Shown here in pieces: positions 22,108 to 22,418 of a stretch of DNA of 64,000 bases; within the stretch, counting starts at the first letter, position 1; each line of letters begins with the position of its first letter. Source of the stretch: Candidatus Latescibacterota bacterium (GTDB lineage: Bacteria; Latescibacterota; UBA2968; UBA8231). Both the position numbers and the translations under genes were made by a program. The stretch lies in the NCBI GenBank assembly GCA_965204725.1, contig OZ242005.1:352001-416000 (forward strand), given 5' to 3'. The notes beneath the pieces are model-generated. The model worked only from the letters and a program-made list of their open reading frames with translations, did not search any database and was not told where the DNA came from.

Positions 22108-22418
22108 TGCCATGCCCATTGACCTCAATGTATTTGCCTAAGCCTTAAGCCTCAAGTAGAGAACTTAGACCGGAATACAGTATCCACACTGAAGCAGCGA
22201 AGACTCTTTATCGCAAATATCGGTTCCGCAGTTAAACAGGTGTAGCTCTTCCTCTCCAATACACTGCTCAACTGGACAATGTGCATTAGCCTCAGTAACT
22301 TTGAGGCCAAGCATAGCCGCTATCGCAGTCGCTGCTAGCGCTCCGAAGACGTAAAAGTGTTTCATAGGTATCACCTCCTTTCTGTTTGAAGATTATGAAT
22401 AGGCCAATGGGCATGGCA
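22108..22418. repeat. 18-bp inverted repeat pair (22108-22125 / 22401-22418) bracketing the peptide gene
   Basis: TGCCATGCCCATTGACCT vs AGGCCAATGGGCATGGCA, 17/18 complementary. Confidence 0.9.
22165..22365 (-). CDS. Secreted cysteine-rich peptide (66 aa; 28-aa signal + 38-aa core with 6 Cys), candidate precursor
   Basis: AAGGAGGTGA SD 5 nt before ATG; hydrophobic signal ending A-N-A; core HCPVEQC...CGTDIC...CGYCIPV. Confidence 0.85.
   Translation of the reverse strand: MKHFYVFGALAATAIAAMLGLKVTEANAHCPVEQCIGEEELHLFNCGTDICDKESSLLQCGYCIPV

Follow-up and report, generated by a model that had tools for sequence, protein, structure and literature searches.

Long-range duplexes within bacterial mRNAs are established substrates of RNase III in other bacteria. 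In Bacillus subtilis, the enzyme cuts mRNA duplexes of 10–36 bp with arms up to 505 nt apart, and G·U or U·G wobble pairs are tolerated in the duplex (Taggart et al., Nucleic Acids Res 2025, PMC11780869). The helices described here, at 12–18 bp and with arms 272–368 nt apart, lie inside the ranges mapped in that study. However, the B. subtilis sites were mapped experimentally and, in the accessible part of that report, are not described as bracketing one small cistron, whereas the arms described here are intergenic, enclose exactly one peptide ORF and are known from sequence alone. In Staphylococcus aureus, the 5′ UTR of yabJ pairs with the yabJ–spoVG intercistronic region to generate an RNase III substrate (bioRxiv 10.64898/2026.09.18.752551). 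There too, a region 5′ of a cistron pairs with the spacer 3′ of that cistron, in that case providing control at the sub-operonic level, but the outcome measured in that case is repression of the downstream gene, whereas the cistron considered here would encode a small secreted peptide in a putative maturation and export cluster, and the motif is found at two loci unrelated to each other. The 16S and 23S rRNAs are likewise flanked by RNase III processing stems, in which complementary flanking sequences pair and a functional unit is released from a polycistronic precursor, as may be the case here (PMC6582327). The present arrangement differs in that a short stem surrounds a translated ORF. The rRNA processing stems are longer than the 12–18 bp helices, are universal, and surround non-coding RNAs of 1.5–2.9 kb.

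Operons for modified or exported peptides need far more peptide than enzyme, and the known solutions to this need are separate promoters and leaky terminators. In the microcin C operon, ribosome-controlled termination takes place at a hairpin that forms locally downstream of mccA (Zukher et al. 2014, PMC4231749). The operon studied here resembles this one in that the gene for a peptide substrate, apparently co-transcribed with the genes for enzymes, needs a higher output than they do. Unlike the case of mccA, the structure is long-range, and the peptide gene at the first of our two loci is not followed by a terminator-like site on the coding strand. In the literature covered, which leaves out most subscription journals, we found no account of a bacteriocin- or RiPP-like operon in which a peptide gene is bracketed by a conserved helix. 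A conserved helix that frames a single peptide cistron at two unrelated loci in an uncultured, sponge-associated lineage would add a third, RNA-structural solution to those already known, and would extend the action of RNase III on long-range mRNA duplexes to natural-product-like clusters. Bracketing repeats could also flag genuine small-peptide genes that are missed by gene callers and family libraries and, where such clusters are moved to a heterologous host for expression, would have to be kept or removed deliberately.

Genetic context of the peptide gene

The window, i.e. the whole stretch of 64,000 nt that was analysed (contig OZ242005.1, positions 352,001 to 416,000, assembly GCA_965204725.1), comes from a Candidatus Latescibacterota bacterium, and its genome is referred to below as the source genome (G000). 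The peptide gene (22165..22365, minus strand) encodes 66 aa followed by a stop codon, with a signal-peptide-like N-terminus (...TEANA/H) and six Cys residues in the C-terminal part. Searches of the peptide against Pfam and NCBIfam returned no family. The gene is preceded by a Shine-Dalgarno sequence, GGAGG (22374..22378), which is invariant in the three-way alignment described below.

Genes on either side of the peptide gene are transcribed in the same direction. Upstream lies a gene for a membrane-anchored thiol-disulfide oxidoreductase of the AhpC-TSA/Redoxin type (22460..23056; PF00578, 51.7 bits; a ResA-like match was below the cut-off), and the first gene of the operon (23053..23643) encodes a membrane protein with a weak FMN_bind-like match (PF04205, 18.3 bits, under the 22-bit cut-off). 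Downstream, a gene for an NHL-repeat beta-propeller protein with an N-terminal signal-like segment (21068..22063) is followed by genes for a MacB/FtsX-type permease (18604–21000), a TPR protein (17399–18604), a glycosyltransferase/transglutaminase-core protein (14907–17387) and a GT2 glycosyltransferase (13832–14920), all on the minus strand. Between 13832 and 21000 the genes overlap or are at most 67 nt apart, and across the whole operon the gaps do not exceed 101 nt, the spacers either side of the peptide gene being 94 and 101 nt. Since the genes are co-directional, the spacers are short and no terminator-like site was found on the coding strand at this locus, both spacers are likely to be carried on a single transcript. 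By gene content, the cluster appears to serve the maturation and export of a peptide, and it was not assigned to a named class.

A sigma-54 promoter-like site, AGGCACGGTTTTTGCA (23790..23805, minus strand), with one mismatch to TGGCAC-N5-TTGCW, is found upstream of the first gene and is the probable start of the polycistron. Window-wide, sigma-54-like matches are at chance level, and it is position alone that lends this one plausibility. Beyond it, three dyad-containing repeats with a spacing of 21 nt (23932..24010; family D1 of the repeat search) are probably bound by the neighbouring enhancer-binding protein, a sigma-54-dependent activator encoded divergently (24236..25279, plus strand; PF00158, 217 bits) that has AAA+ and HTH_8 domains and no receiver domain. 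Taken together, the divergent activator, the dyad repeats and the sigma-54-like site suggest that one sigma-54 promoter serves the polycistron. This locus, hereafter locus 1, is within an island of low G+C content (43–53 % at about 14–25 kb, compared with 62–64 % for the genome) that was probably acquired.

An inverted repeat brackets the peptide gene

An earlier, sequence-only reading of the window had described an inverted repeat around the peptide gene, with arms at 22108–22125 and 22401–22418, complementarity at 17 of 18 positions, a G-U wobble on the minus strand and a loop of 275 nt holding the ribosome-binding site and the ORF. A repeat search recovered the same pair of arms, 94 % complementary over 18 nt, and all of these features were confirmed. 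The 5′ arm, UGCCAUGCCCAUUGGCCU (22401..22418, minus strand), is in the redoxin–peptide spacer, with 41 nt between it and the redoxin stop codon and 35 nt between it and the peptide AUG. In the peptide–NHL spacer, the 3′ arm, AGGUCAAUGGGCAUGGCA (22108..22125, minus strand), lies 39 nt past the peptide stop codon and 44 nt before the NHL start. Pairing is Watson–Crick at every position but one, where the minus (coding) strand has G·U and the plus strand would have A·C. The two segments can form an uninterrupted duplex of 18 bp within one strand, the single G·U pair included, against a minimum of about 10 bp for a long-range intramolecular RNase III substrate. Enclosed in the loop are the Shine-Dalgarno sequence and the 66-aa ORF. 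Both arms are purely intergenic and mid-spacer, clear of ribosome footprints, and the helix would thus be compatible with translation of the enclosed ORF.

When the minus strand of 22090–22440 was folded, as the sequence-only reading had proposed as a check, the helix appeared in the MFE structure and in the centroid alike (z = −3.8; none of 100 shuffled sequences folded as well). When flanks of 120 nt were included, the mean pair probability of the helix was 0.98, with a range of 0.97–0.98 across the three locus 1 sequences introduced below. The helix is predicted to be dominant in all ten sequences folded from the two loci, where mean pair probabilities were 0.76–1.00. No Rfam 15 covariance model matched at E ≤ 1 in the window between 21000 and 24300 or in L124 between 3700 and 5800. 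One further structure, a terminator-like hairpin on the plus strand (22425–22441) that would suggest an antisense RNA, was set aside as it lies within an indel specific to the source genome and such matches occur at chance level.

Frequency of comparable repeats

The 5.4 Mb contig C1 of the source genome was scanned for inverted repeats, allowing one mismatch at most and a loop length of 60–1000 nt. There were 148 repeats of at least 16 nt, 48 of them at least 18 nt long, and 106 of the 148 are members of multi-copy families that have terminal repeats. Among repeats 18 nt or longer, about 20 per 5.4 Mb are single-copy, which is near a rough chance estimate. On its own, the repeat at locus 1 is unexceptional genome-wide, and the case for a function therefore rests on its conservation in homologous loci and on recurrence of the arrangement at a second peptide locus. 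Outside the multi-copy families, 4 of the 42 C1 repeats enclose an ORF of <120 aa that is preceded by a Shine-Dalgarno sequence and fills at least 60 % of the loop. These are locus 1, the second locus (locus 2, below) and two repeats of 16 nt (C1:1116346) and 19 nt (C1:3848562). In the paralogous glycosyltransferase/transglutaminase clusters of the source genome (L125–L127), no comparable peptide-bracketing repeat was found, and the best repeats there lie inside coding sequence.

Searching 185,579 species genomes with the locus 1 18-mer identified 42 stretches, and both arms were found only in the record of genome G007. The 41 other stretches have one match each, against about 35 estimated by hand, and one of them, L047, is a true homologue in which the 3′ arm has diverged from the search pattern. 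In an exact-arm scan of metagenome contigs, there were 62 single matches and none with both arms.

These frequencies bear on the explanation that the repeat is a non-functional relic, due either to chance complementarity or to terminal repeats left behind by a mobile element that brought in the peptide gene. The near-chance number of single-copy repeats, the abundance of elements with terminal inverted repeats in this genome and the location of the locus in a low-GC, probably acquired island would all be in keeping with this. However, at 0 mismatches the arm sequence occurs in the source genome only as the two arms themselves, and hence is not a dispersed repeat, and the confinement of the two-arm arrangement to a single record among so many genomes also speaks against a relic. 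The arms are unlike the terminal inverted repeat families of C1 and are not flanked by direct duplications. The features of a MITE or IS-type element are likewise missing, as the arm is present as a single pair, there are no target-site duplications, and synteny is conserved in the homologous loci. In addition, the arms are significantly better conserved than the spacer around them and the same architecture is held at the second locus across two genera, as set out in the following sections. We consider a relic highly improbable.

Homologous loci

Of 40 relatives, one (G007) has a homologue of the locus 1 peptide, and a search of 168 genomes of the phylum revealed no other. The third member of the group is the L047 locus in genome G168, which was recovered by tblastn over the loci from the arm scan. 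Neither the peptide nor the NHL protein, used as queries against genome contigs, revealed a further homologue of locus 1; a search of metagenome contigs with an alignment of the peptide gave no match, and tblastn of the metagenome arm-scan loci gave no peptide homologue. A marginal profile match to the peptide in G137 (L061) was rejected, as it is GC-rich coding sequence and not a homologue.

The three loci have a common gene order, and the stem, whose lack in homologous loci the sequence-only reading had listed among its refuting observations, is present in all of them. It is 18 bp long in the source genome. In G007 the arms are fully complementary (18/18) around a loop of 272 nt (3′ arm beginning AGGCC), and L047 has a 16/16 helix with a 302-nt loop, the two inner pairs having been lost (3′ arm beginning CAGCC). 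The 5′ arm is identical in the three loci, and the 3′ arm varies at its inner end only. The enclosed peptides share 63 % (G007) and 47 % (L047) identity with that of the source genome; the leader and the positions of the six Cys residues are preserved and the mature part is rewritten, with indels. In the three-way alignment, 33 of the 36 arm columns are invariant compared with 105 of the 168 other intergenic columns (Fisher one-sided p = 2.8e-4), and for the ORF the number is 114 of 228. Ribosome-binding sites aside, the arms are the best-conserved non-coding stretches. The three loci show one G-C to G·U change and no double changes, and arms that are this close to invariant provide no covariation.

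Invariant rather than covarying arms would suit sequence-specific recognition, and this raises the question of whether the arms are paired DNA sites for a protein or a promoter. Under this explanation, the 5′ arm would be a −35 element plus spacer, or an operator, and the 3′ arm an inverted copy for the same regulator, acting by DNA looping or as a roadblock. Overlapping the 5′ arm is TTGCCA-16-CATAAT (22419–22392), the top-scoring sigma-70-like match within 2.4 kb (10/12), and G007 has TTGCCA-16-CACAAT (9/12). Hence, part of the arm conservation could be promoter-related. Against this, sigma-70-like matches are at chance level (6 found compared with 5.2 expected) and the match is weaker in L047, which has CTGCCA. 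The sequences in the −10 position on the opposite strand at the 3′ arm, TGTATT in the source genome and TTACAT in G007, do not indicate an antisense promoter. A sigma-54 promoter inside an arm was also considered and dropped as there is no GG-N10-GC fit (by eye). Operators bound by dimers are usually internally palindromic, whereas the arms have no internal palindrome. Further evidence on this point comes from the second locus.

A second bracketed peptide gene

The scan of C1 identified a second 18-nt repeat of this type (C1:3450707–3450724 and 3451093–3451110; 5′ arm CAUUCACCAUGUGGAGGU) with a loop of 368 nt. The arm sequence is unrelated to that of the locus 1 arms and, as at locus 1, the coding strand has G·U at the sole mismatch. 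Between the arms is a peptide ORF of 90 aa, preceded by a Shine-Dalgarno sequence of its own and flanked by a gene for a stand-alone Peptidase_C39 and an Rce1-like/CPBP gene. This locus is also in a low-GC island, where further genes encode a GT2-TPR fusion and a protein paralogous to the glycosyltransferase/transglutaminase protein. The 90-aa peptide was found in 7 of the 168 phylum genomes, representing two genera, and additionally in G168, and all eight peptide-bearing genomes have the helix. It is 17–18 bp long in G000, G146, G007 and G168 and 12–14 bp in G138, G135, G136 and G139. Among genomes that keep the helix, identity of the peptide drops to 33–37 %. A search of genome contigs with a two-arm DNA pattern of locus 2 returned four loci, all of them already known.

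In a seven-row alignment of locus 2, all 84 cells of a 12-bp core are paired. At one of the pairs, four rows have A-U and three have G-C, and two more pairs are G-C in some rows and G·U in others. RNAalifold, run unguided, predicted the same 12 pairs, and 88 % of cells were paired compared with 36–54 % when the partner was slid by 1–3 columns. However, the shuffle control was not significant, with a covariation score of 0.188 against a mean of 0.156 that was reached by 59 of 500 shuffles, and a percentage of paired cells reached by 76 of 500. As the change in the compensatory pair separates the two genera, it may represent one event. At the inner edge of the helix (alignment columns 38–42) pairing decays, and G138 has A·C there. 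A local hairpin of 14 pairs is located 5–6 nt 3′ of the 3′ arm at all locus 2 loci. Compensatory changes are seen in 9 of its 14 pairs and U·G pairs are found on the sense strand, which places the region beside the 3′ arm under selection for RNA structure on the coding strand. A test for intrinsic terminators was negative at both loci, locus 1 having no site and the locus 2 hairpin no U tract after it.

Complementary arms are predicted by RNA and DNA models alike, and a concerted change of both arms is also expected of a DNA-level repeat or of a pair of sites for one protein. The concerted change at locus 2 could, for example, track a shifted specificity of the protein. However, there is no promoter-like match over the locus 2 5′ arm, and arms that are unrelated at the two loci are ill suited to one sequence-specific protein. 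Moreover, paired protein or promoter sites predict neither a bias to G·U on the sense strand nor a covarying hairpin next to the locus 2 3′ arm. This explanation is, in our view, unlikely.

Orientation of the bracketed segment

The sequence-only reading had offered, as an alternative to pairing in the mRNA, that the repeats are recombination sites for an invertible or exchangeable cassette. In an inversion switch of this kind, a recombinase would flip the 311-bp segment and turn the peptide off while the rest of the operon was still transcribed. The anatomy fits, as invertible switches (fimS, hin, and the invertons of Bacteroides and Clostridioides) likewise have short inverted repeats around a few hundred base pairs, and fimS and the Bacteroides or Clostridioides switches are similar in size to this segment. 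Identity of the arm sequences across loci is also as expected for recombinase sites. In contrast to those switches, the segment here is the gene and not a promoter, and no second orientation was seen. The orientation was the same in 13 of 13 assemblies or contigs, from which rare variants are dropped. These comprise locus 1 in the source genome, in G007, in L047 of G168 and in contigs from runs X5 and X7, and locus 2 in eight genomes. Contigs aligned to locus 1 contained no strand-changing joints. The X5 contig is identical to the locus 1 stretch and may be its source, and the X7 contig, which covers the entire stretch, has 63 differences and 3 indels over 1698 nt, with no indel in the arms.

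Candidate recombinases are also poorly placed. The source genome has no match to the resolvase/invertase family (PF00239), and its three tyrosine recombinases (PF00589; C1 717716, 1689344 and 3165752) are all at least 285 kb from either locus, though the recombinases of known DNA switches are sometimes encoded far away. The arms differ internally at both loci of the source genome, always as G·U on the sense strand, and in one genus the locus 2 core is down to 12 bp, both of which count against recombination sites. Finally, the arm sequences at the two loci are unrelated, and one invertase would therefore not serve both. We regard an inversion switch as very unlikely, and the cassette proposed in the sequence-only reading finds no support in the assemblies and contigs compared.

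Probable pairing in the mRNA and its possible consequences

Over the two loci, there are three internal non-Watson–Crick events, namely locus 1 in the source genome, locus 2 in the group formed by G000, G146, G007 and G168, and locus 2 in G138. All three are G·U on the sense strand and none is A·C, an outcome with a chance of 1 in 8 if transitions strike either arm equally. A gene for RNase III is present in the source genome (C1:693865–694263). An RNA-level role is favoured over a DNA-level one by mismatches that are exclusively G·U, by the unrelated arms at the two loci, by the placement of the arms, clear of both ribosome-binding sites and of the ORF, by the RNA-level hairpin that abuts the locus 2 3′ arm, by the predicted dominance of the helices and by the encoded RNase III. 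Hence, the arms are most likely kept by selection and pair with each other in the polycistronic mRNA of the minus strand. The corresponding part of the sequence-only reading, in which such pairing would separate the peptide cistron from the rest of the message, is strengthened by the presence of the arms in 3 of 3 locus 1 loci and of the second locus in 8 of 8 genomes, by the high pair probability predicted in all ten folded sequences, by the restriction of mismatches to G·U and by the presence of RNase III.

The bracketing repeat at locus 1 is real and conserved, the arrangement recurs at a second locus, and a mechanism for it is plausible. On balance, we lean towards a long-range helix in the mRNA that would single out the peptide cistron, either for processing by RNase III or for stabilisation. 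Pairing of the arms in the polycistronic mRNA would produce a helix of 16–18 bp closing a loop of about 275 nt, and the peptide cistron would become its own folding domain, uncoupled post-transcriptionally from its neighbours. By one route, paired RNase III cuts in the duplex would yield a peptide mRNA with base-paired ends. These cuts would also separate the downstream enzyme and transporter genes, and at locus 2 the downstream fragment would start with a protective hairpin. By a second route, the helix would not be cut and would act as a clamp, shielding the cistron from decay that depends on the 5′ or the 3′ end. By either route, peptide output would be uncoupled from that of the enzymes and the transporter. 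Co-transcription of the arms, formation of the helix in vivo, cleavage by RNase III and an effect on peptide yield, such as the excess precursor of the sequence-only reading, are what we infer from these comparisons of genomes.

A broader and more speculative proposal, which we think possible but doubtful, is that peptide cassettes in these horizontally acquired islands make use of a reusable RNA module, the cistron-bracketing helix, which would have arisen independently at the two unrelated loci and be joined at locus 2 by the adjacent hairpin as 5′ protection for the downstream fragment. Such a module would yield a long-lived 'panhandle' mRNA with paired ends, whether or not it is cut by RNase III, in which terminating ribosomes are held near the start for re-initiation, and a high ratio of peptide to enzyme would be reached with neither a separate promoter nor a terminator. 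A direct effect of the helix on opening of the ribosome-binding site was also considered and was set aside. With the helix, the probability that the segment from the Shine-Dalgarno sequence to the AUG is unpaired went up in 6 of 9 sequences and down in the other 3, and the effects were small and inconsistent.

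Variation of the peptide gene and its surroundings

The 66-aa peptide gene of locus 1 (window 22165-22365, minus strand) was compared with its homologues in the two other genomes found to carry one, G007 (positions 1501-1698 of stretch L010) and G168 (positions 3982-4209 of stretch L047). Across these three loci, the signal-like leader is near-invariant and the mature part is hypervariable with six Cys residues retained, a typical pattern for diversifying secreted peptides. The motif of the adjoining redoxin reads CSSC in the source genome G000, CPSC in L047 and CPAG in G007, where the second Cys is lost.

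The leader-coding part of the peptide ORF includes a hairpin (GCCUCA-aaguuac-UGAGGC, minus strand, about window 22283-22303), which belongs to the MFE fold. In L047, synonymous changes in two of its codons (GGC to GGU, GAG to GAA) convert a C-G pair into U-A, possibly a compensatory change within the ORF.

An 809 nt contig from a related strain in sequencing run X6 matches the downstream NHL gene with 33 differences (window 21400-22076) and, beyond 22076, runs on for 43 letters that are unlike the window; hence, that strain has a different sequence upstream of its NHL gene. The breakpoint is not at the 3' arm of the locus 1 inverted repeat (window 22108-22125) but 32 nt outside it.

The contig of G168 (L047) is labelled as a Poribacteria MAG, though both of its peptide loci are shared, at high identity, with genomes labelled Latescibacterota, and this points to a difference in binning or labelling, or to transfer between sponge symbionts.

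Upstream of the operon, a sigma-54-like promoter site and three dyad repeats spaced by 21 nt (window 23790-24010), together with a divergent gene for a receiver-less sigma-54 activator (window 24236-25279), resemble a classic enhancer-dependent promoter serving the operon of this island.

Second peptide locus and repeated sequences in G000

Locus 2, in stretch L124 of the 5.4 Mb contig C1 of G000 (C1:3446001-3460000), has the gene order Peptidase_C39, 90-aa peptide, Rce1-like/CPBP and Yip1; upstream of these are GT2-TPR and glycosyltransferase/transglutaminase genes. Its peptide gene is bracketed by its own 18 bp repeat (L124 4707-4724 and 5093-5110), which is followed by a covarying hairpin of 14 pairs. 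Another inverted repeat in this island (19 nt, one mismatch, 266 nt loop; L124 9752-9770 and 10037-10055) sits within the reading frame that encodes the 824-aa glycosyltransferase/transglutaminase.

Paired glycosyltransferase/transglutaminase and GT2 genes, in some cases accompanied by TPR, occur four further times in G000 (C1:2113356-2116390, 2143415-2146974, 3452000-3456616 and 4875608-4896276), at 30-50 % identity. One TPR paralogue reaches 82 %, and the set looks like a modular accessory joined to varying partners.

C1 also includes, at many places, several multi-copy families whose terminal inverted repeats (17-24 nt) are separated by a fixed distance of 808, 878 or 897 nt, and short forms of about 103 nt (e.g. 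C1:4640085-4640940, 4212795-4213720, 30839-31781 and 2977004-2977151). They probably represent small IS elements, together with MITEs derived from these.
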